IMG/VR virus record: IMGVR_UViG_3300020714_000006 | From: a virus | Taxonomy: Duplodnaviria; Heunggongvirae; Uroviricota; Caudoviricetes | Direction: 5' to 3' (one strand) | DNA length: 64,000 nt | Shown: one piece after another, positions 3,841 through 42,211 of the stretch | Layout: each line of letters begins with the position of its first letter | How positions within the stretch are numbered: the stretch's first letter is position 1 | Notes under the pieces: model-generated | Database searches by the model: none | Told to the model about the DNA's origin: nothing | The model's input: only the letters and a program-made list of their open reading frames with translations | Translations under genes and position numbers: made by a program

Positions 3841-5615
3841 GCATAGAAGTCAAACAATTAACAGTAAAAAATTTCATGAGTGTTGGCAACCAAACACAGG
3901 CTGTAACATTTAATCAAGAAAATTTAACATTAGTATTAGGTGAAAATCTAGATCAAGGTGGTGATGATTCCGGTTCAAGAAATGGCACTGGAAAAACAAC
4001 TATCGTCAATGCATTGAGTTTTGCATTATATGGAATAGCACTAACTAATATTAAAAAAGATAATCTTATAAACAAGATTAACAATAAAAATATGTTAGTT
4101 ACACTAACATTTTCAAAAGATGGAGTTGATTATAAAATTGAAAGAGGTAGAAAACCTGCTATTTTTAATTTTATAAATCTTGCAGATCCATCCAAAGTTG
4201 AAGAAAGTGATAGCCAAGGTGAATCAAAAGATACTCAAAAAGATATTGAAACATTATTTGGTATGAGTCATAATATGTTCAAACATATAGTAGCATTGAA
4301 TACTTATACTGACCCATTCTTATCAATGAGGGCGGGTGATCAGCGTGAAATAATTGAGCAATTACTTGGTATCACTTTGCTAAGTGAAAAAGCAGAAATT
4401 CTTAGTAAAGAAATTAAGCAAACAAAAGAGTTGATTTTTCAAGAAAATGCAAATATTGAAGCAATGAAAAAATCCAATGAAAAAATTAAACAAAGTATTG
4501 ATTCATTAACAATGAGTCAACGTTCTTGGAATTTGAAACATAATAATGAACTTCAAAAACTTGGTGAATCTATTGTAAATTTGGAAGGATTAGATTTGAC
4601 TGCAGAATTATTAGCGCATAATGAATTAAAATCATACTATGAACTTTCTACAAAAATTAGCAGTTTAAATAAAGAAAAAGCAACCTTAGAAGCAGCAATT
4701 GAACAAGCAAATAAAAATCATGATAATTATATTAATCATGTAGCAGTTGTAGAATCAAAAATATGCCCAGCATGTGCTCAAGAACTACAAGATCATACAC
4801 ATGAAGATATGTTAGAATCTAGTAAAAATACAGTTGAAGAATCACAACAATATCTTGATAAAGTTTCAAATGAATATGAAAGTGTTATTAGTCAATTATG
4901 GAAGTTAGGTGATTTACCTGAAAAACCATCAACGTACTATCCAACATTAGAAGAAGCATTAACACATCGTAATACATTGATTACTTTACATGCACAATTA
5001 ACTAGTAAATCTAATGAAATAAATCCATATGATGACCAAATTATTGAATTAAAAAGTGAAGCATTACAACCAATAAATTGGAGTATAATAAATGACTATA
5101 CTTCATTAAAAGATCATCAAGAATTTTTGTTAAAATTATTAACAAATAAAGATAGTTTTATACGTAAAAAAATAATTGACCAAAACCTAGCATACTTAAA
5201 TAATAGACTAACTTATTATATTGATAAAATGGGTTTACCACATACAGTTATATTTCAAAATGATTTAACTGTAGAAATTATGCAACTAGGACAAGAATTG
5301 GATTTTTTTAATCTCAGTCGCGGTGAGATGACTAGAGTTATTCTCAGTTTAAGTTTTGCATTTCGTGATGTATGGGAAAGTTTATATCAAGGTATAAATG
5401 TATTATTTATTGATGAATTAGTTGACAACGGCTTAGATGCAAGTGGTGTTGAGAATGCGTTAAGTATTATGAAAAATATTGCACGAGAACGTAATAAAAA
5501 TATCTTTTTAATTAGTCATAAAGACGAATTAGCGGGAAGAGTTAATAATATACTTAAAGTAGTTAAAGAAAATGGTTTTACTCAATATGAATATCCAGAA
5601 TATAATGAAAATTGA
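3837..5615 (+). CDS. gp46: Recombination ATPase, Rad50/SbcC-like (gp46)
   Basis: Walker A RNGTGKTT, coiled coil with CPAC zinc hook, signature LSRGE, Walker B LFIDE, H-loop ISHK. Confidence 0.93.
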   Translation: MSIEVKQLTVKNFMSVGNQTQAVTFNQENLTLVLGENLDQGGDDSGSRNGTGKTTIVNALSFALYGIALTNIKKDNLINKINNKNMLVTLTFSKDGVDYKIERGRKPAIFNFINLADPSKVEESDSQGESKDTQKDIETLFGMSHNMFKHIVALNTYTDPFLSMRAGDQREIIEQLLGITLLSEKAEILSKEIKQTKELIFQENANIEAMKKSNEKIKQSIDSLTMSQRSWNLKHNNELQKLGESIVNLEGLDLTAELLAHNELKSYYELSTKISSLNKEKATLEAAIEQANKNHDNYINHVAVVESKICPACAQELQDHTHEDMLESSKNTVEESQQYLDKVSNEYESVISQLWKLGDLPEKPSTYYPTLEEALTHRNTLITLHAQLTSKSNEINPYDDQIIELKSEALQPINWSIINDYTSLKDHQEFLLKLLTNKDSFIRKKIIDQNLAYLNNRLTYYIDKMGLPHTVIFQNDLTVEIMQLGQELDFFNLSRGEMTRVILSLSFAFRDVWESLYQGINVLFIDELVDNGLDASGVENALSIMKNIARERNKNIFLISHKDELAGRVNNILKVVKENGFTQYEYPEYNEN

Positions 5616-6318
5616 TACCTTACCATATTTGTATAAATGGACACAACTTTCTACTGGAATGTGGTACATTGGTTCTAAAACCCAAAAAGGATGGACTCCT
5701 CTGTTACATGAAAAATACATTTGTTCTAGTAAAATAGTAAAACCAATGATTGTAGAAAATAGACAAGATTGGGTGTATGATATATTAGTAATTGGATCAG
5801 CAAAATATATTAGAGAATTAGAAACATCATATCTAGTTTACCTAGATGCAAAAAATAATGTGATGAGTTATAATAGAAGCAATGCTAAATTTGATCCAGG
5901 TAATAAATTAGGTTATAAAGAATCCTTAGAAACTAGACAAAAGAAAAGTAATGCGAGAAAAGGTGATAAAAATCCAATGTTTGGAAAAACTGGATTACTA
6001 TCACCACATTATGGAAAAACACATAACGCTGAAACAATCCAAAAGCAAAAAGAAGGTGTTAAAAAATATGCAAAATCTAGACCACCAGAGCATAATAAAC
6101 GAATTAGTGAGGCACTTACAGGAAACCCAAAAGTAGGATTAAAAAAAGAAAAAAATCCTTCATTTGGAAAACCGTGGGTTGCAGATAGAATAAATCTGTT
6201 ACCACCAAAAACTTGTGAATATTGTAATAAATCAGTATCTATTGGAAATTTTGCTAGATGGCACGGTGAAAAATGTAAATTTAATAAAAAATTAGTTGAC
6301 AAATCAGAAAAGTTATAG
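5605..6318 (+). CDS. Free-standing GIY-YIG-like (Seg-like) homing endonuclease with NUMOD3-like repeats and a C-terminal Cys/His module
   Basis: YLYKW...WYIGS N-terminus, KGDKNPMFGK and HYGKTHNAET repeats, CEYC...RWHGEKC end; overlaps the gp46 stop. Confidence 0.75.
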   Translation: MKIDTLPYLYKWTQLSTGMWYIGSKTQKGWTPLLHEKYICSSKIVKPMIVENRQDWVYDILVIGSAKYIRELETSYLVYLDAKNNVMSYNRSNAKFDPGNKLGYKESLETRQKKSNARKGDKNPMFGKTGLLSPHYGKTHNAETIQKQKEGVKKYAKSRPPEHNKRISEALTGNPKVGLKKEKNPSFGKPWVADRINLLPPKTCEYCNKSVSIGNFARWHGEKCKFNKKLVDKSEKL

Positions 6319-6324
6319 TATAAT
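6296..6324 (+). promoter_or_regulatory. Sigma70-type promoter
   Basis: TTGACA (6296-6301), 17 bp spacer, TATAAT (6319-6324). Confidence 0.7.
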
Positions 6325-6678
6325 ATGCCTAAGAAAGTAGAGCCAAAACAAGATTACGCACCAAGAATTTATAGTTGGCAGTTGGATCAAATTCCAACTG
6401 ATAACGATATACATGATAAGCTAATTCATGCTTTTCAACAGTATTATAAAGCAAATTTACATTGGATTCAAGCAGGAACAAAACGTTCCGGGCAAGATGC
6501 AAGGTATTGGTTAAGTGAAATCAATAAACTTACCATTGAACAAAGAAAATTTATTTTAGAATGGATCAAAACTATTAGTGATAAAACTAATAAAGACAGA
6601 ACATTTAAATCAACAACTAAAAAACAAAGAAAACTTTTACAGATTCAGGGTACGGTCGGTTCTCATAAAGATAACTAA
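6325..6678 (+). CDS. Small basic protein, possibly histone H1-like (Hc1-type) DNA-binding protein
   Basis: Helical hairpin ...AGTKRSGQDARYWLSEINKL resembles the GNKAAGTRARKxxxEL core of Hc1-like proteins; Lys/Arg-rich tail; true start uncertain. Confidence 0.5.
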   Translation: MPKKVEPKQDYAPRIYSWQLDQIPTDNDIHDKLIHAFQQYYKANLHWIQAGTKRSGQDARYWLSEINKLTIEQRKFILEWIKTISDKTNKDRTFKSTTKKQRKLLQIQGTVGSHKDN

Positions 6679-6682
6679 CCAA

Positions 6683-7201
6683 ATGAGTAGCAAATCAAAA
6701 ACTAAAGGCAACACTTGGGAGAGAGATGTAGCAAATCATCTCTCTTCACTTTACAAAGAAAAGTTCATTCGAGTTCCATCGTCGGGTGCATACGTGGGAG
6801 GTAAAAACTCAATACGTAAAGAATTTCTACAAGATGGTCAAATAAGAATGATGAAAGGGGATATTATCCCACCAGATAAATGGAAACATTTTAATTGTGA
6901 ATGCAAATCATATGCAGATTTTCCATTTCATCAATTAGTCCAAGGTGAATGTAAACAATTAGAAACTTGGCTATCTCAATTGATTGAAGTAACCGATACC
7001 GGTGATATAAACATTTTAATGTTTAAAATAACACGAAAAGGCAAATTCATAGCAGTACCACAGGCAACTTACTGGCACAACTTACCATACTTCTCTTACC
7101 ATTCTATTAAGCATGGTACTTGGCAAATTTTTGACTACGATGCTTTCTTTGAGCATAATAATAAAAAATTCAAAACTTTGTCAATCAAAGGCACAATTTA
7201 G
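6683..7201 (+). CDS. Holliday junction resolvase-like PD-(D/E)XK nuclease (Hjc-type)
   Basis: SKTKGNTWERDVA, RVPSSGA, GDII...ECKSY catalytic pattern; ATG at 6683. Confidence 0.75.
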   Translation: MSSKSKTKGNTWERDVANHLSSLYKEKFIRVPSSGAYVGGKNSIRKEFLQDGQIRMMKGDIIPPDKWKHFNCECKSYADFPFHQLVQGECKQLETWLSQLIEVTDTGDINILMFKITRKGKFIAVPQATYWHNLPYFSYHSIKHGTWQIFDYDAFFEHNNKKFKTLSIKGTI

Positions 7202-7690
7202 GCAAATAGGCAAAACACTTCTGATATACTAGCACCGGTAGATTGATAGGTGCCGTTAGCAATGGAATGTACTTCACATTGAGCGTAACAACTGTGCAGA
7301 AGCAGTGACTTTACTGACTACCCACACCTCGTGTTGTGGATGATGATTGGATACGCCTTACGTAAAACCAATTTCGGTAACTTGAACAAATGAAAAAAGG
7401 CTAAAAGACTGGGTAATTCCCAGACGTATTAGGAATATGACTAGAGTATTTTCCTAATACCACCGTTGGACAATGAAACAAAAACGCACTTCGAGGTAAC
7501 GGCCAACCGCCTCTGTAATTAGTGTAACTCTAGGTAATGAAGTCAACTCAGATGAAATTATTTTTTTGCTCCCTTCGGGGGGCAAAATTCGTAAATCGTA
7601 ATCTAGATGAATATCTATCATATAATTACTCTTTGATAATAAGAGAAATGTGGTGAACGTAAGTGAACCACAGGAGAACTATGTTCTCCT
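7202..7690 (+). ncRNA. Candidate large structured non-coding RNA (family not recognised)
   Basis: No plausible ORF, visibly GC-richer than flanks, more than 10 hairpins, C(UUCG)G tetraloop on the + strand, several loop-distal complementarities. Confidence 0.6.
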
Positions 7691-7700
7691 TATAATAATA

Positions 7701-7708
7701 GATAAATA
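7701..7708 (+). promoter_or_regulatory. Late promoter motif GATAAATA
   Basis: One mismatch to TATAAATA, upstream of 7732. Confidence 0.6.
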
Positions 7709-7731
7709 TATTATTAAATGGATTATTTAAA

Positions 7732-8463
7732 ATGAAAGTATATGAAATTATAAGTAGAAATGAACCTGTAAATGAGAATCTTAAATCATCAATATTAGGT
7801 GGTATTAAAAAATTTATTGGAAAAAATAAAAAATCTGTAGGACTTGGTAGCAGTGCTGCTAAAATAGCTTCTCCATTACAAAACATATCACAACAATTAA
7901 CTTCTGGTATTACTATACTTAAAAATCTTGGTGTATATGGATTATTTGGATATGAGATCAACAAATACGTAGATGAAATACAACAAGGAATAGAACATGT
8001 TGAAGCAGGTGATTGGAATGATGCAACATTTCAAACATATCGTAAACAAAGATCTGCGATATTTATATCAACACTTTCTACTATGATATTAAGTTCTATG
8101 GGATCTAAGATGGTTGGCAGTGCTGCCAATATGCTTACGTTTGGGTTGTTATCAAAGTGGTTTCCATTTCTAACAAAATTATCAACAACCGCTCTTCAAT
8201 TATATTTTATGAATTATGTAGTAAACACAAAGGAAGGTGCCGACTATATAGCACGATTTCTTGCAAGCCCAGTGATAGGTGATGTATTTGGGAATGGGAG
8301 TGTAGCAGCAGTTGACTGGATATCTAAAAAAATGGATCAAACTTTGGGAATGTCAATACCAGGTGCAGCTACAAAAGATACACCTGATAATCCACAAGTT
8401 CAACAAGTACCATTTCAATCCAAACTTAAATCAGGGTCTATTAATAATATAGTTGATTGGTAA
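7732..8463 (+). CDS. Hypothetical late protein with hydrophobic segments
   Basis: 243-aa ORF behind a late promoter motif; convergent with 8464..8679. Confidence 0.65.
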   Translation: MKVYEIISRNEPVNENLKSSILGGIKKFIGKNKKSVGLGSSAAKIASPLQNISQQLTSGITILKNLGVYGLFGYEINKYVDEIQQGIEHVEAGDWNDATFQTYRKQRSAIFISTLSTMILSSMGSKMVGSAANMLTFGLLSKWFPFLTKLSTTALQLYFMNYVVNTKEGADYIARFLASPVIGDVFGNGSVAAVDWISKKMDQTLGMSIPGAATKDTPDNPQVQQVPFQSKLKSGSINNIVDW

Positions 8464-11607: not shown

Positions 11608-14600
11608 ATGGCATGGAAAAAATTCTTCACACCGGTAGAACAGGGCAATAATTTAAGTCCAGTATCCGGTAATACATCTAAGGCAGGACCAGCTAGAACT
11701 AATTATTCTAGTTACTTACCTGATGTTTATACTGGTAGTCCAAATAGAGTGGACAGATATCAACAATATGAAGTAATGGACAGTGATCCAGAAGTAAATG
11801 CTGCGCTCGATATATTAGCAGAATTCTGTACACAAAAAGAAAAAGACGGTAAAAGCCCATTTAATGTTAAATGGCGTAGTAAAGCAACCAATTCTGAAGT
11901 AAGAATATTGGGTGAATATTTACAACAATGGAATAGATTACAATTATTTGATACTAGAATATTTCGCATTGTTAGAAATGTATTTAAATATGGTGATGCA
12001 TTTTTCATCAGAGATCCTGAAACACAAAAATGGACATGGGTTGACCCAACTAAAATTGTAAAAATTATAGTCAACGAAAGTGATGGTAAAAAACCAGAAC
12101 AATATGTTATTAAAGATTTAGCTCCAAATTTTGAAAGTTTAGTAGCTACACAAATAACACCAAATGTTAATCCACGACAAAATGGAATGGGTGTAATTCC
12201 TAGTAGCGGCTATTCAGGTGCTGGACCAACCAATAGTGGTTCATCTGGAGCATCTGCATCTAGTACTGGTAATCGTTGGGGATTAGCAGAAACTGAACAT
12301 GCTATTAATTCTGAACATGTTATTCACTTATCATTATCTGAAGGATTGGATAACAATTTTCCATTTGGAAATAGTTTATTAGAAAATGTATTTAAAGTAT
12401 ACAAACAAAAAGAATTATTAGAAGATGCAATTTTAATATATCGTATTCAAAGAGCACCAGAACGCAGAGTATTTCATATTGATGTTGGAAATATGCCAAG
12501 TCATTTAGCAATGGCATTTGTTGAGCGTGTTAAAAATGAAATACATCAAAGAAGAATACCAAGTCAAACTGGTGGTGGACAAAATGTAATAGATAGCGCA
12601 TATAATCCCCTATGTCTTGATTTATCTACTAGAATACCATTATTAGACGGTAGAGTATTGACATTAAATGAATTAATAACTGAATTTGAACAAGGTAAAG
12701 AAAATTGGGCATATAGCTGTAATCCAGAAACAGGAAAAGTTGTACCTGGTGTTATTAATTGGGCTGGCGTCACTAGAAAAAATACCGAGGTTATACAATT
12801 AACTTTTGATAATGGTGAAACATTGATATGTACACCTGATCACAAAATACCAGTATTTGGTAAAGGTTTTGTAGAAGCGAAAGATTTGGCAGCCGATGAC
12901 AGTTTAATTGCTTTTAATATTAGAGACAAATCGATATCCGGTGGTAAAACTAACAAGTATCAACAAGTATGGGATCATGAAACAAAAGCATGGATTTGGA
13001 CACATAGAATGGTTGGTGAGTTTTTTAGAGAACGTGATAAACATCAAGAATTTACATATCTTGCAGAATATGTAAATTCTGCAAAATGTACTATTCATCA
13101 TAAAGACAGTAATCGATTTAATAATGATCCAAGAAATCTAACATATATGAATAAAGAAGATCATATTTTATATCATTCTGTTCAGAAACATGATTTTTGG
13201 AAAAACATGAGTGATGAATATAGAAGTCAAATGACTGATAAAATTTCAAAATCATTAAAAAAATATTGGGCTGAGATGACTCCTGTTGAACGAACATCTG
13301 CACTATGGAATATTCGTAATGCACAACAGAAAGCAGTATGGATGAGACAAAATGACAGAGAAACAATGCAAAGATATAAATCTGCTGCTAGTGCATCTAG
13401 AAAACAATATATTAAAAATAACCCAGAATTTAAAAAAATTCTTGATAACAATCTTAAATCAAGAGTAAAAATTAAAAATCAAGAATTGAGTTTGACTTTT
13501 CCGATGTTACAACGAATAGCTGACAAGGTTAACGCTGGTTATACAAATAAAAATGAAGTTATTTCATTGTGTGATGATGACAATATATTGTTAGAAATGG
13601 TTAGGAAAGAGAATTCTACCAAAATGGAATACAAAAATGCACAATGTAAAATTGATTTTTCAAAATTTGGTTATAGTAAATTAGATCGACTTATTAACAA
13701 ATTTGGTTATAAGAATTGGAAGACATTCGTTAAAAATATTGAAACTTTTAATCATAAAGTAGTGAAGATTGAAAAGATTTCAAATAGAGATACCGGTACT
13801 ATAACAATCGACGGAACTGAATGCTGGCATGATTATCATACATTTGCAATCGAAAGTGGAATTTTTGTTAAAAATTCAATAAATGAAGATTACTTCTTCC
13901 CGATGACTGCGGATGGTCGTGGTAGTAAAGTTGATGTATTACCAGGTGGTACAAACCTTGGTGAAATTGATGATTTAAAATACTTTACCAACAAATTATT
14001 CCGTGGTTTACGTATACCAAGTTCTTACTTACCAACTGGTGCAGATGATAGTCAAGCATCATTTAATGATGGACGTGTTGGAACAGCATACATTCAAGAA
14101 TTAAGATTTAACAAATACTGTGAAAGATTGCAAAATCTTATTACAGCTATATTTGATAATGAATTTAAATTGTTTATGAATTCACGTGGTGTAAATATTG
14201 ATTCTAGTTTATTTGAATTGTCATTTAATCCGCCAATGAACTTTGCAAGTTCTCGACAAGCTGCAATGGATACTGAACGTATTAATACATTTAATACTAT
14301 TCAGGGTATTCCATATATGAGTAAAAGATTTGCTATGAAACGTTTCTTGGGATTGAGTGATGATGAAATGGCAGAGAATGAACGTTTATGGGGTGAAGAA
14401 TCAGGAAAAGGTCAACCAACACATACTGATGCGGCTGGTGAAATGCGAAGTGCTGGATTATCAGCTGCTGGTATTGAAGGTGATATGGGCATGGCTGGTG
14501 ATTTAAGTGCACCAGACGGTATGGAAGGTGAAATGCCACCATCTGAAGCGGGTGCACCTGGTGTTGCGCCTGGAATGCCTGGTGGAATGCCAGGTTCTGC

Positions 14601-14613
14601 TCCACAAGTATAA
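11608..14613 (+). CDS. gp20: Portal vertex protein (gp20-like) with intein
   Basis: MDSDPEVNAALDI, LLEDAILIYRIQRAPERRVFHIDVGNMP, EDYFFP, LPGGTNLGEIDDLKYFTNKLFRGLRIPSS. Confidence 0.93.
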   Translation: MAWKKFFTPVEQGNNLSPVSGNTSKAGPARTNYSSYLPDVYTGSPNRVDRYQQYEVMDSDPEVNAALDILAEFCTQKEKDGKSPFNVKWRSKATNSEVRILGEYLQQWNRLQLFDTRIFRIVRNVFKYGDAFFIRDPETQKWTWVDPTKIVKIIVNESDGKKPEQYVIKDLAPNFESLVATQITPNVNPRQNGMGVIPSSGYSGAGPTNSGSSGASASSTGNRWGLAETEHAINSEHVIHLSLSEGLDNNFPFGNSLLENVFKVYKQKELLEDAILIYRIQRAPERRVFHIDVGNMPSHLAMAFVERVKNEIHQRRIPSQTGGGQNVIDSAYNPLCLDLSTRIPLLDGRVLTLNELITEFEQGKENWAYSCNPETGKVVPGVINWAGVTRKNTEVIQLTFDNGETLICTPDHKIPVFGKGFVEAKDLAADDSLIAFNIRDKSISGGKTNKYQQVWDHETKAWIWTHRMVGEFFRERDKHQEFTYLAEYVNSAKCTIHHKDSNRFNNDPRNLTYMNKEDHILYHSVQKHDFWKNMSDEYRSQMTDKISKSLKKYWAEMTPVERTSALWNIRNAQQKAVWMRQNDRETMQRYKSAASASRKQYIKNNPEFKKILDNNLKSRVKIKNQELSLTFPMLQRIADKVNAGYTNKNEVISLCDDDNILLEMVRKENSTKMEYKNAQCKIDFSKFGYSKLDRLINKFGYKNWKTFVKNIETFNHKVVKIEKISNRDTGTITIDGTECWHDYHTFAIESGIFVKNSINEDYFFPMTADGRGSKVDVLPGGTNLGEIDDLKYFTNKLFRGLRIPSSYLPTGADDSQASFNDGRVGTAYIQELRFNKYCERLQNLITAIFDNEFKLFMNSRGVNIDSSLFELSFNPPMNFASSRQAAMDTERINTFNTIQGIPYMSKRFAMKRFLGLSDDEMAENERLWGEESGKGQPTHTDAAGEMRSAGLSAAGIEGDMGMAGDLSAPDGMEGEMPPSEAGAPGVAPGMPGGMPGSAPQV
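12613..13875 (+). mobile_element. Intein (421 aa) with an HNH-type endonuclease domain, in the portal
   Basis: Starts CLDLSTRIPLLDG after ...AYNPL; block B ICTPDH; HHKDSNRFNNDPRNL HNH motif; ends GIFVKN followed by Ser+1; removal restores AYNPL|SINEDYFFP. Confidence 0.9.
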
Positions 14614-19501: not shown

Positions 19502-20260
19502 ATGAATAAATATAAAAAATGGTATAGCATACTAACAGAAAATGCAAAAAATAGATTATTATCAGAATATAGTGAAAACCATCATATCATTCCAAAAAGT
19601 TTAGGTGGGTTAGATACCGATGATAATATAGTAAAACTAACGGCAAGAGAACATTTTATATGTCATTGGTTATTAGTTAAAATATATTCAACTGGTGAAG
19701 AACATTGGAAAATGCTTAATGCATTGCGAATAATGCGTGCTGAAAATACTAAACAATACAGGTATACAACCGCAATCACATCAAGAGTGTATGCTAAATT
19801 AAAAGAAGAATATGCGATACTTCAAAGTAATAAGGTATCTGGTAAAAATAATCCTATGTATGGTGCCAAATTTACTAGAAGTGAAGATGGTAAGCGTAAA
19901 CAACGTGAGGCTATATTAGGTGATAAAAATGGCTCTAAAAATTTAGAAGCTAGACAAAAGATAAGCCAAAGCAAACTTGGAAGAAAACGTGAACCATTTA
20001 GTGAAGAATGGAAAGAAAAATTATCGATTGCTAAACAGGGTAGTAATAATAATATGTTTGGTAAAACTCATAGTGAAGAAACCAAGAAAAAAATGAGGGA
20101 TAAAGCAACTGGTAGAAAGTTTAGTGCAGAAGTTATAGAAAAAAGAGCATCTGCACAACGTGGGTTAGTTAGACCAAAAAAGTTATGCCCACATTGTCAA
20201 CAGCAAATACCAGTAAATACTTATCCACGATGGCACGGAGATAATTGTAAAAGTAAGTAG
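19502..20260 (+). CDS. Free-standing HNH homing endonuclease (Mob-like) with NUMOD3-like repeats
   Basis: ENHHIIPKSLGG...LTAREHFICHWLL; NNMFGKTHSEETKKKM; C-terminal CPHC...RWHGDNC; CATAAATA 5 nt upstream. Confidence 0.85.
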   Translation: MNKYKKWYSILTENAKNRLLSEYSENHHIIPKSLGGLDTDDNIVKLTAREHFICHWLLVKIYSTGEEHWKMLNALRIMRAENTKQYRYTTAITSRVYAKLKEEYAILQSNKVSGKNNPMYGAKFTRSEDGKRKQREAILGDKNGSKNLEARQKISQSKLGRKREPFSEEWKEKLSIAKQGSNNNMFGKTHSEETKKKMRDKATGRKFSAEVIEKRASAQRGLVRPKKLCPHCQQQIPVNTYPRWHGDNCKSK

Positions 20261-40461: not shown

Positions 40462-42210
40462 TTGGCTAACAATAAAACATTTTCAATAAAAAACGGATTA
40501 ACCGTCGGAACAACTACTGTCATAAACTCTAGTGGAGTTTGGATAGGGTCTCCAATTGGTTTAACTGGTGCTACTGGACCAACTGGTGCTACTGGCCCTG
40601 GGGGATTTGCTGGTGCATCTGGTGCAACAGGCCCAATTGGTGCTACTGGTATACCTGGAATAGGCTCTACTGGTGCTACTGGCCCACAAGGATACATTGG
40701 TGCTACTGGTGCTACTGGATTAACTGGCTCCACTGGAGTCGGTGCTACTGGTGCTACTGGATACCAAGGCGCAACTGGTGCAACAGGACCACAAGGTGCA
40801 ACCGGTCCCAAAGGTGCAACCGGACCACAAGGTTACCAAGGTTCTACAGGATCATTTGGTGCCACTGGTGCCACTGGTCCACAAGGTGCAACTGGTCCAC
40901 AAGGTGCAACTGGTGCAACTGGTCCACAAGGTGCAACTGGTCCACAAGGTGCAACTGGACCAACTGGTGCAACTGGTCCACAAGGTGCAACCGGAACAGC
41001 CGGTGCTACTGGACCAATTGGGGCAATTGGCGCATCCGGTGCAACAGGTCCAAAAGGTGCTACTGGCGCAACAGGACCTGCTGGTCCACGCGGTTCTACT
41101 GGTGCAACAGGTCCACAAGGCATAGATGGCGCCACTGGCGCCACTGGTCCAGTAGGTTCTACGGGTTCTACAGGTGCTACTGGCCCAAGTGGTTCTACAG
41201 GTGCTACTGGACCGCAAGGAGCCACAGGTGCTACTGGCCCAAATGGTGCTACAGGTGCTACTGGACCAATTGGGGCGACTGGCGCATCTGGATATCAAGG
41301 TGCTACTGGAACACCAGGTGCTGATGGACAAATTGGTGCAACTGGCGCAACAGGACCACAAGGACTTCAAGGATCTACTGGATTAACTGGTGCTACTGGT
41401 TCTAAAGGTGCTACTGGAGCATCTGGATTAACTGGTTCTACGGGTTTAATTGGTGCCACAGGACCACAAGGTTCTACTGGTGTGACCGGTGCAACTGGTC
41501 CAATTGGGGCATCTGGCGCAACTGGTGCAACTGGTCCACAAGGTGCAACTGGTCCACAAGGTGCAACTGGTTCAACAGGGCCATTAGGTGCAACAGGTCC
41601 AAATGGTGCAACTGGTGCAACCGGACCGATTGGTGCAACTGGTGATACTGGGCCAATAGGTGCTACTGGTGATATTGGGCCAATAGGTGCTACTGGCGCA
41701 TCTGGTGCTATTGGTCCAATAGGTGCTACTGGTGCTACTGGGCCGCAAGGAGTTGCTGGTGCAGATGGATCATTTGTATATAATTCAAATGCTCAAGTAA
41801 ATTCATTGGGGGTTGGGACTGCTGCATCTACTAATACTGGTGAAATTAGAGCAACTAGTACTATTACTTCATTCTTTTCTGATATTAGACTTAAAGATAA
41901 TATAGAAATTATTACTAACGCACTAGACGCAATTGATAAAATACGAGGTGTTAAATATACACAGAATAAATTTGCAGAACAATTTGGGTATAATAATTAT
42001 GAACAACAAGTAGGGGTTATTGCACAAGAAATGCAAAAAGTACTACCAGAAGTAGTTAAACCAGCTCCGTTTGATATAGATATACATGGAAATAGCAAAT
42101 CTGGTGAGAATTATTTAACTGTTCAATATGAAAAAATAGTCCCGCTATTAATCCAAGCTATTAAAGAACAACAATCTGCAATAGATTTATTACTACAGTA
42201 TATAAAATAA
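40462..42210 (+). CDS. Collagen-like fibre protein with C-terminal intramolecular chaperone (peptidase S74-like)
   Basis: About 400 aa of G-X-Y (GAT/GPQ/GST); SDIRLKDNI and GVIAQE...[14 protein letters not shown]; TTG start. Confidence 0.85.
40558..41772 (+). repeat. Collagen G-X-Y coding repeat (ggtgcaact/ggtccacaa units)
   Basis: 9-nt periodic, degenerate at third codon positions. Confidence 0.9.
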
Positions 42211-42211
42211 C

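Follow-up and report, generated by a model that had tools for sequence, protein, structure and literature searches.

Results

Genomic setting of the gap

The window, by which we mean the whole 64,000-nucleotide stretch of DNA that was analysed, is part of a T4-like giant phage. Genes for a late sigma factor, the gp47/gp46 nuclease subunits, a NUMOD3 homing endonuclease, a 117-aa ORF and a PD-(D/E)XK resolvase-like protein follow one another, in window order, upstream of a gap at 7202-7731, beyond which come a 243-aa ORF, a convergent 71-aa ORF with the baseplate hub gene and, 3' of the hub, the portal, prohead protease and major head genes (Table 1). Among cultured phages, the resolvase is most closely related to those of PA5oct, Paride, SCTP-2 and Phosso (40-49% identity).

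A preliminary description of this DNA, made from its letters alone, had singled out the gap as the only long gene-free one, richer in G+C than its surroundings and filled with complementary segments. All of this is borne out: G+C amounts to 0.41 in 7219-7590 against 0.34 in the window, all 33 strings listed as stems or complementarities are present where they were placed, and an apparent second long gap, at 41124-42211, is an artefact of ATG-only gene calling that is spanned by a TTG-started ORF of 582 aa. The sigma-70 promoter placed at 6296 likewise agrees with the consensus at every scored position (Table 1), and a promoter of the same type is legible 5' of the small ORF in two other loci, L002 and L004. 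In the window (6296-6327), the -10 box of this promoter, a perfect match, directly adjoins the ATG start codon of the 117-aa ORF; in L002 and L004, 7 nt separate the two, an arrangement resembling that of leaderless mRNAs. The 117-aa ORF itself found no match in PHROGs and none above the cut-off in Pfam, and it is missing beside the RNA in many relatives. The TAAATA motif at the 3' limit of the module is late-promoter-like, by comparison with the T4 late consensus.

An intein with an HNH domain splits the portal gene (11608-14613), and free-standing homing endonuclease genes follow gp46 (5572-6318) and the major head gene (19502-20260), the former being patchily present among relatives.

Table 1. 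Features of the RNA module and its flanks in the window
Feature	Position	Strand	Remarks
Sigma-70-type promoter	6296..6324	+	12/12 consensus match; likely drives a transcript into the RNA
Small basic ORF, 117 aa	6325..6678	+	neighbour only; without family
PD-(D/E)XK resolvase-like gene	6644..7201	+	PF24608, E 8e-27; phrog_244, E 2e-20; swappable neighbour
Structured RNA core (Polynucleobacter-1 5' domain and 3' core, four pseudoknots)	7219..7533	+	covariation; ends approximate
Pseudoknot 0, leader 7220-23 with loop 7297-7300	7220..7300	+	4/4 pairs compensatory; 86% of cells paired; mutual information z 18
Rfam RF01718 match	7227..7383	+	model 1-141 (full); 59.2 bits, gathering score 37, E 4.7e-10
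Pseudoknot 1, loop 7356-58 with 7398-7400	7356..7400	+	3/3 pairs compensatory; 85% paired
Pseudoknot 2, loop 7442-47 with 7527-32	7442..7532	+	6/6 pairs compensatory; 98.5% paired
Pseudoknot 3, 7465-69 with loop 7503-07	7465..7507	+	3/5 pairs compensatory; 98.9% paired
Word 1, AGATGAA	7550..7556	+	same as word 2 in 92/92 parsed homologues; predicted RNA copy
Conserved hairpin between the words	7564..7587	+	90% paired; 3/7 pairs compensatory
Word 2, AGATGAA	7605..7611	+	55 nt 3' of word 1; predicted DNA target, template strand
A+T-rich stretch, 80%	7614..7648	+	candidate unwinding element
G-A-mismatch hairpin and second hairpin	7649..7689	+	z -5.4 (DNA), -5.8 (RNA); candidate loading signal, displaced strand
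TAAATA, late-promoter-like	7703..7708	+	precedes the 243-aa ORF at 7732; 3' limit of the module

The gap RNA belongs to the Polynucleobacter-1 family

The preliminary description took the RNA to be new and named a match to an Rfam family as the observation that would remove its novelty. Because the gap matches RF01718, Polynucleobacter-1, which is the sole Rfam match within the 64 kb, the claim is wrong by its own criterion. No tRNA, tmRNA, RNase P, group I or II intron or known ribozyme was found by ARAGORN and Rfam, and there was no covariance-model match to ROOL, GOLLD or OLE.

When the Polynucleobacter-1 motif was first catalogued, in 2010, no function was assigned to it (Weinberg et al. 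2010, PMC2864571), and a table of that report tentatively marks it as cis-regulatory. The accompanying alignment covers about 300 nt in 16 rows, mostly environmental, 11 of which extend through the same 3' core as the window, so that most of the RNA set out in the preliminary description had in effect been described in 2010, with no function assigned (PMC2864571). Membership in the family thus follows from a score above the gathering threshold together with the 3' core motifs and the pseudoknot pairing that the window shares with the 2010 alignment. As far as the structure lines of that alignment go, the sole pseudoknot drawn (line SS_cons_1) is our pseudoknot 2; the other three are absent there, and the lines stop short of the tail considered below, with its twin word, intervening hairpin, A+T stretch and DNA-type hairpins (PMC2864571). 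The literature that we searched contains no paper other than the 2010 report that names the motif, and no description of the tail, of the islands or of an origin for this phage clade. Within that literature, neither the other three pseudoknots nor the concerted word, DNA-type tail or islands were found in print.

Fold of the RNA core

To evaluate the fold, we used an alignment of 55 non-redundant copies of the type represented by the window (type A), from which one false hit and one near-duplicate had been excluded, and a structure of 60 pairs in 14 helices. In this alignment, 94.9% of the paired cells could form a pair, compared to 80.6% in shuffles, and compensatory changes involving both sides were detected at 44 of the 60 pairs, a level reached by none of the 500 shuffles, although these statistics lean high because one alignment served both to derive the structure and to score it and because two helices are partly fixed by the search pattern (the helix 7493-96/7510-13 and part of 7503-07 lie under the pattern and therefore do not vary). 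In slid-register controls, only 37-45% of the cells were paired. G-U cells exceed A-C cells (280 vs 42), which points to the + strand as the folded one. Thus, a large, conserved, multi-pseudoknotted structured RNA occupies the gap. Comparative evidence strongly bears out the preliminary description in this respect; folding energy alone does so only modestly, single-strand folding being somewhat beyond chance (z of -2.4 for the + strand and -1.5 for the - strand).

Most of the individual pairings put forward from the single sequence could be evaluated in the same alignment. Among the local stems, P1, the stem at 7426-60, the stem 7486/7521 and the hairpin between the words are supported, as are three of the distal pairings, which correspond to pseudoknots 1 to 3. 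For the AATGT/ACATT stem, the proposed register fails and a nearby pairing, 7262-64/7277-79, takes its place; the hairpin at 7409-23 covaries in one analysis but aligns poorly. No support was obtained for CAGTG/TACTG (7303/7312), TGACTT/AAGTCA (7306/7540) or CCGTT/AACGG (7463/7498), with one pair of the last kept in 3 of the 55 copies. The proposed partnership of TCTGA at 7220 with TCAGA at 7548 is retained, depending on the pair, in 4 to 48 of the 55 copies and without compensatory change; the true partner of the leader is the loop at 7297-7300, in a pseudoknot (pseudoknot 0) that is missing both from the preliminary list and from the structure lines of 2010.

A twin word and DNA-type hairpins in the tail

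Analysis of mutual information revealed columns in the tail that covary as identities rather than as pairs, and these columns are two copies of a short word. Among 99 loci of types A and B, parsing of the words succeeded in 92, and in all 92 the two 7-mer copies are identical within the locus over eight six-letter versions, compared to a mean of 11.7 and a maximum of 24 in shuffles; in six of the seven unparsed loci, a twin word specific to the locus is visible by eye. Parsimony requires at least 29 and at least 16 changes of the word on two trees. The spacing between the copies varies from 47 to 60 nt and is unphased, and a complement of the word inside the RNA was found in 5 of the 92 loci only. 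In local folding, word 1 does not stand out as unpaired (mean 0.40).

Downstream of word 2, the sequence is A+T-rich (median 73% in 80 homologues), and a G-A-mismatch hairpin follows in 80 of 92 relatives, at a median distance of 38 nt further on. Hairpins with a cGNAg triloop occur on the RNA strand in 55 of the 92 and on the opposite strand in 23; in the window, the loop of the second 3' hairpin is TAT, not GNA. Loops of the cGNAg type are DNA-type and are present in strand-loading signals; the literature searches yielded no source for GNA hairpins in loading signals. The preliminary description had counted the hairpins at 7649-7689 as part of the RNA fold. Judged by their counterparts in relatives, they instead look like a DNA element outside that fold.

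Several copies in one genome

In three genomes with more than one module, the words could be compared between copies. G004 carries two modules and G011 two islands, with words that differ between the copies and match within each; G005 carries four dispersed RF01718 copies, in one of which the same base is changed in both words. Words that differ within one genome and yet are self-matched imply that the match acts in cis, and at the level of sequence the self-match points to pairing in cis rather than to a shared protein site, because one protein serving all copies would need no self-match in each of them.

The flanks of the words provide a less consistent picture. Mismatches there lean toward G in copy 1 versus A in copy 2, the direction tolerated by wobble, and the duplex of copy 1 on template 2 is energetically favoured in 40 of 42 type C loci (a count that leaves out 5 of 47 loci), 25 of 36 type B loci and 34 of 56 type A loci. 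The duplex energies in the window oppose this bias (-8.2 vs -9.9 kcal/mol), and the opposite direction is also seen in 20 of the 56 type A and 10 of the 36 type B loci; moreover, in types A and B, the three bases preceding the word are always mismatched, two of them in the unfavourable direction. The loci are related to one another, and A-richness around word 2 could account for at least part of the G/A bias.

The four G005 cassettes, located at 35.0, 165.3, 232.7 and 310.9 kb (L609, L610, L611 and L606), are about 80% alike and each exceed 1.2 kb; they comprise sigma-70 promoters in tandem, the RNA and, 3' of it, an extended run of short repeats. The complete genome G006 (372 kb) has one RF01718 copy with a sigma-70 promoter of its own and no adjoining nuclease. 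Tandem small ORFs with a common WRxPT motif lie beside the RNA in flanks from these two genomes (L611, L613). Across 66 loci, strong sigma-70 sites (at least 10/12) within 150 nt 5' of the RNA are rare (3 of 66), and an AGGCA repeat 5' of the RNA proved unconvincing (35 vs 20 of 66).

The upstream nuclease is swappable

The preliminary description had raised the possibility of a ribonucleoprotein formed with the adjacent PD-(D/E)XK nuclease. We examined 80 loci with flanks, of which 70 remained after one false hit and 9 short loci were dropped. The gene directly upstream of the RNA encodes a compact GIY-YIG protein in 49 of these, a PD-(D/E)XK protein in 6 and neither in 15. Stand-alone RNA copies with sigma-70 promoters of their own occur, and no nuclease is found near the RNA in G006, in three of the four G005 copies or in the islands. 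Because the upstream nuclease is swappable or absent, such a complex is unlikely, and gene order argues against any obligate partnership of the RNA with the PD-(D/E)XK nuclease. Among the replacements is a compact 147-aa protein of the GIY-YIG type in the resolvase's place in L206 (1770-2210, - strand); the PHROG that it matches best, 447, carries the label NAD synthetase, which is probably erroneous.

Distribution of the RNA

A 21-nt pattern for the core of types A and B detects an estimated 1600 or so IMG/VR stretches, and 119 of the 120 examined were real by profile; in GTDB genomes, the same pattern gave none in 120, all being chance matches. An initial search pattern was discarded as mostly chance (7 of 119 loci real). 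In other phages, the same slot is occupied by RNA types B, C, D and one more, which have a 5' or a 3' part in common with type A and follow the same tail plan, and of 18 such alternative RNAs tested, only 2 match Rfam. Type B is seen in L137, L157 and L188, type C in L132, L147, L184 and others and type D in L134 and L162, with further cases in L196 and L608; these RNAs mix 5' and 3' modules, and types B and C are without an Rfam match. A pattern for type C detects about 400 IMG/VR stretches, with 74 of the 120 examined being real.

The RNA is not universal at this position, being undetectable within 4 kb of 28 of 80 resolvase loci. Among cultured phages, blastn of four RNA versions against INPHARED gave no usable match, RF01718 has no match in PA5oct, Phosso or SCTP-2, and an Rfam search of eight loci at E <= 1 was also negative. 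Four ncRNAs of PA5oct have been reported, at sites other than the equivalent of the gap (PMC7318152).

Polynucleobacter islands

In GTDB, seven loci, six of them in Polynucleobacter, combine an RF01718 match with the whole tail. At one of these (L485, 3393-12565), the RNA lies in a 9.2-kb stretch that is flanked by att-like repeats, contains an eight-fold palindromic operator and encodes two integrases, a clamp-loader homologue (E 5e-20), a DUF6641 protein and unassigned proteins. This stretch and L614-L634 make up a family of integrated islands of about 9 kb, undescribed so far, that occurs in Polynucleobacter as well as in other betaproteobacteria. A scan of 17-18 island proteins gave no match to a primase, helicase, Rep or terminase, and no capsid gene was recognised among them. 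When an island protein was used as the marker, 21 loci were obtained, of which 12 carry the RNA, 2 carry the same 3' hairpins behind other sequence, and 7, several of them incomplete, have neither. The island copies lie 3' of a late-promoter-like TAAATA, and the first six letters of their words match in 11 of 13, one exception being G versus A. An island RNA copy had no plasmid match.

We infer that these islands are satellites of the giant phages. With phage satellites such as PICI, PLE and P4, they share a size of about 9 kb, att-like repeats, integrases and a repeated operator; they differ in that no Rep, primase, helicase, terminase or capsid was recognised among the proteins scanned. A 262-aa island protein has no viral match at E <= 0.001, and its predicted fold (pLDDT 76) has an uninformative best structural match (Z 6.2); atlas look-ups for two island proteins provided a weak regulator lead alone (PF20109, 14% of one cluster). 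One small island protein begins with an MKxxE motif, as does the family of the phage 243-aa ORF.

Discussion

By analogy with known systems, the order of promoter, folded RNA, self-matching word, A+T-rich stretch and DNA-type hairpins is that of an R-loop origin. We tentatively favour the interpretation that the module is a transcript-primed replication origin, in which the RNA would serve as an R-loop primer in the manner of ColE1 and T4. A structured origin had been the second choice of the preliminary description; it is now the preferred reading, with the difference that the RNA itself would act as the primer. A broader proposal appears more doubtful than this: PA5oct-like giant phages would have a 400-nt pseudoknotted RNA origin with a reprogrammable seven-base self-address, and Rep-less Polynucleobacter satellites would have stolen that origin for use with the helper's replisome.

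Under this model, transcription from the promoter at 6296 would run through the resolvase gene into the RNA, and, in the wake of the polymerase, word 1 of the folded RNA would base-pair to the template strand of word 2, much as the rG stretch of ColE1 RNA II pairs with a template dC stretch. The hybrid, persisting over the A+T stretch, would present the replisome with an R-loop; the primer would be made by an RNase H or a flap nuclease, and a helicase or primase would load on the hairpins of the displaced strand. The satellite-like islands would have captured the module to borrow the replisome of the helper.

In ColE1, persistence of the hybrid depends on pairing between the rG stretch of RNA II and a dC stretch of the template, and the displaced strand serves helicase loading (PMC4412123, PMC5043065). 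The module resembles this system in that a candidate folded transcript leads into a putative origin and that, at the sequence level, a word of the RNA is able to pair with the downstream template. It differs from ColE1 in lacking any sequence likeness and in having a word of mixed sequence that changes between lineages, and Rfam reports no match to RNA II or the antisense RNA I; at most, then, the module would work like ColE1 without being a member of its type. T4 has at least five origins in use; in oriF and oriG, a promoter is combined with an A+T unwinding element, and active origins lie near strand switches (PMC3016281). The window comes from a T4-like phage and likewise shows, in its sequence, a promoter followed by an A+T element near a strand switch, and there can be several copies per genome. 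However, minimal T4 origins span about 100 bp, use MotA middle promoters and need neither a special R-loop sequence nor a large folded RNA (PMC3016281), whereas the module has a large folded RNA and a specific word. The module is also like ROOL, GOLLD and OLE in being large, pseudoknotted and phage-borne. None of these is known to have a self-matching DNA word or DNA-type hairpins downstream.

In favour of an origin are the concerted twin word, self-matched in each copy, the sigma-70 promoters of stand-alone copies and the islands, where the RNA is carried by 12 of 21 and the proteins scanned include a clamp-loader homologue and no Rep. Several observations count against it: a hybrid of 7-9 bp is short, word 1 is not plainly unpaired, the wobble bias fails in the window, no RNA was detected within 4 kb of 28 of the 80 resolvase loci, RF01718 has no match in three cultured phages (PA5oct, Phosso and SCTP-2), and two unassigned island proteins could be initiators. 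GC skew in two long contigs, whether cumulative or at fourfold sites, tracks the coding strand and gives no origin signal.

The interpretation as an origin has to be weighed against several others. A free, trans-acting ornate RNA, that is, a scaffold, a decoy or an OLE/ROOL/GOLLD-like ribonucleoprotein for which the twin words are two RNA or DNA sites of one protein, would account for the size, the four pseudoknots, the RNA-type GNRA and UNCG loops and the similar UGAC-type spacer before each word, which is reminiscent of a duplicated motif, and additional copies could raise dosage. We nevertheless consider it unlikely, because differing, self-matched words in one genome or cell are not expected of a shared protein, DNA-type hairpins accompany the RNA into the islands, and there is no constant protein partner. 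Nor do we think it probable that the module marks DNA for packaging or recombination, with RNA-DNA pairing in cis opening a branched site for terminase or a junction nuclease and the islands borrowing a pac site. A nuclease gene of the branch-cutting type lies directly upstream in 55 of 70 loci, and terminase, too, is unmatched among the island proteins scanned; the TAAATA ahead of the island copies suits packaging and an origin equally well. Phage copies, however, are preceded by sigma-70-type promoters, the islands have kept a clamp-loader homologue, and four dispersed copies in one genome suit origins better than a single pac site.

The remaining possibilities fare worse. The invariant core and complex fold, the occurrence in islands and the four G005 cassettes, with their about 80% likeness, might suggest a ribozyme or a small mobile cassette for which the two words are sites of self-cutting, joining or copying, but an internal guide complementary to the words is generally lacking (5 of 92), Rfam reports no intron or ribozyme family, and many phages retain the position near gp46 and the hub gene, as would be expected of a core function, all of which makes this explanation improbable. 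Still less probable is a cis regulator, or a terminator or antisense junction between convergent operons: the tentative cis-regulatory mark in the 2010 table (PMC2864571) and the location at a strand switch, where antisense transcription would yield the complement of word 2 as well, are offset by a downstream gene that is often convergent or unrelated, by the persistence of the module without those operons and by a search for a + strand terminator that found none. We give least credence to an RNA-guided PD-(D/E)XK nuclease with the RNA as its guide or scaffold, the ribonucleoprotein of the preliminary description. Although the nuclease gene adjoins the RNA, and is probably co-transcribed with it, in the window and four close relatives, it lies directly upstream in so few loci (6 of 70), with no nuclease near the G006 copy, three of the four G005 copies or the islands, that the constant cognate nuclease of OMEGA- or TIGR-like systems has no counterpart here; furthermore, a variable guide segment is lacking, and the best labels of the protein are those of a resolvase. 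RNase P, hammerhead, C/D box, DnaA box, TIGR array and bridge RNA assignments were rejected as well, given no Rfam support, no internal guide and unphased spacing.

If the module is indeed a transcript-primed origin, an RNA family orphaned since 2010 would acquire a function, an abundant clade of uncultured freshwater giant phages would acquire a mapped origin, and a third design of RNA-primed initiation would stand beside those of ColE1 and T4, one in which specificity resides in a freely changing word. The twin word makes this orphan RNA directly testable, and cultured Polynucleobacter strains carry the module. Even if the module is not an origin, three unreported pseudoknots and a strictly concerted repeat define a structural target of 400 nt.

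The cultured relatives of the resolvase also have gaps of note. Those of PA5oct (L324, 2490-3966) and Phosso (L326, 2986-4001) show no homology to the RNA profiles of this analysis; both are gene-poor, hairpin-rich and adjoin the resolvase gene, and that of Phosso also adjoins a gene for RNase HI and contains a 7-nt repeat, the copies of which lie 52 nt apart and flank a hairpin.
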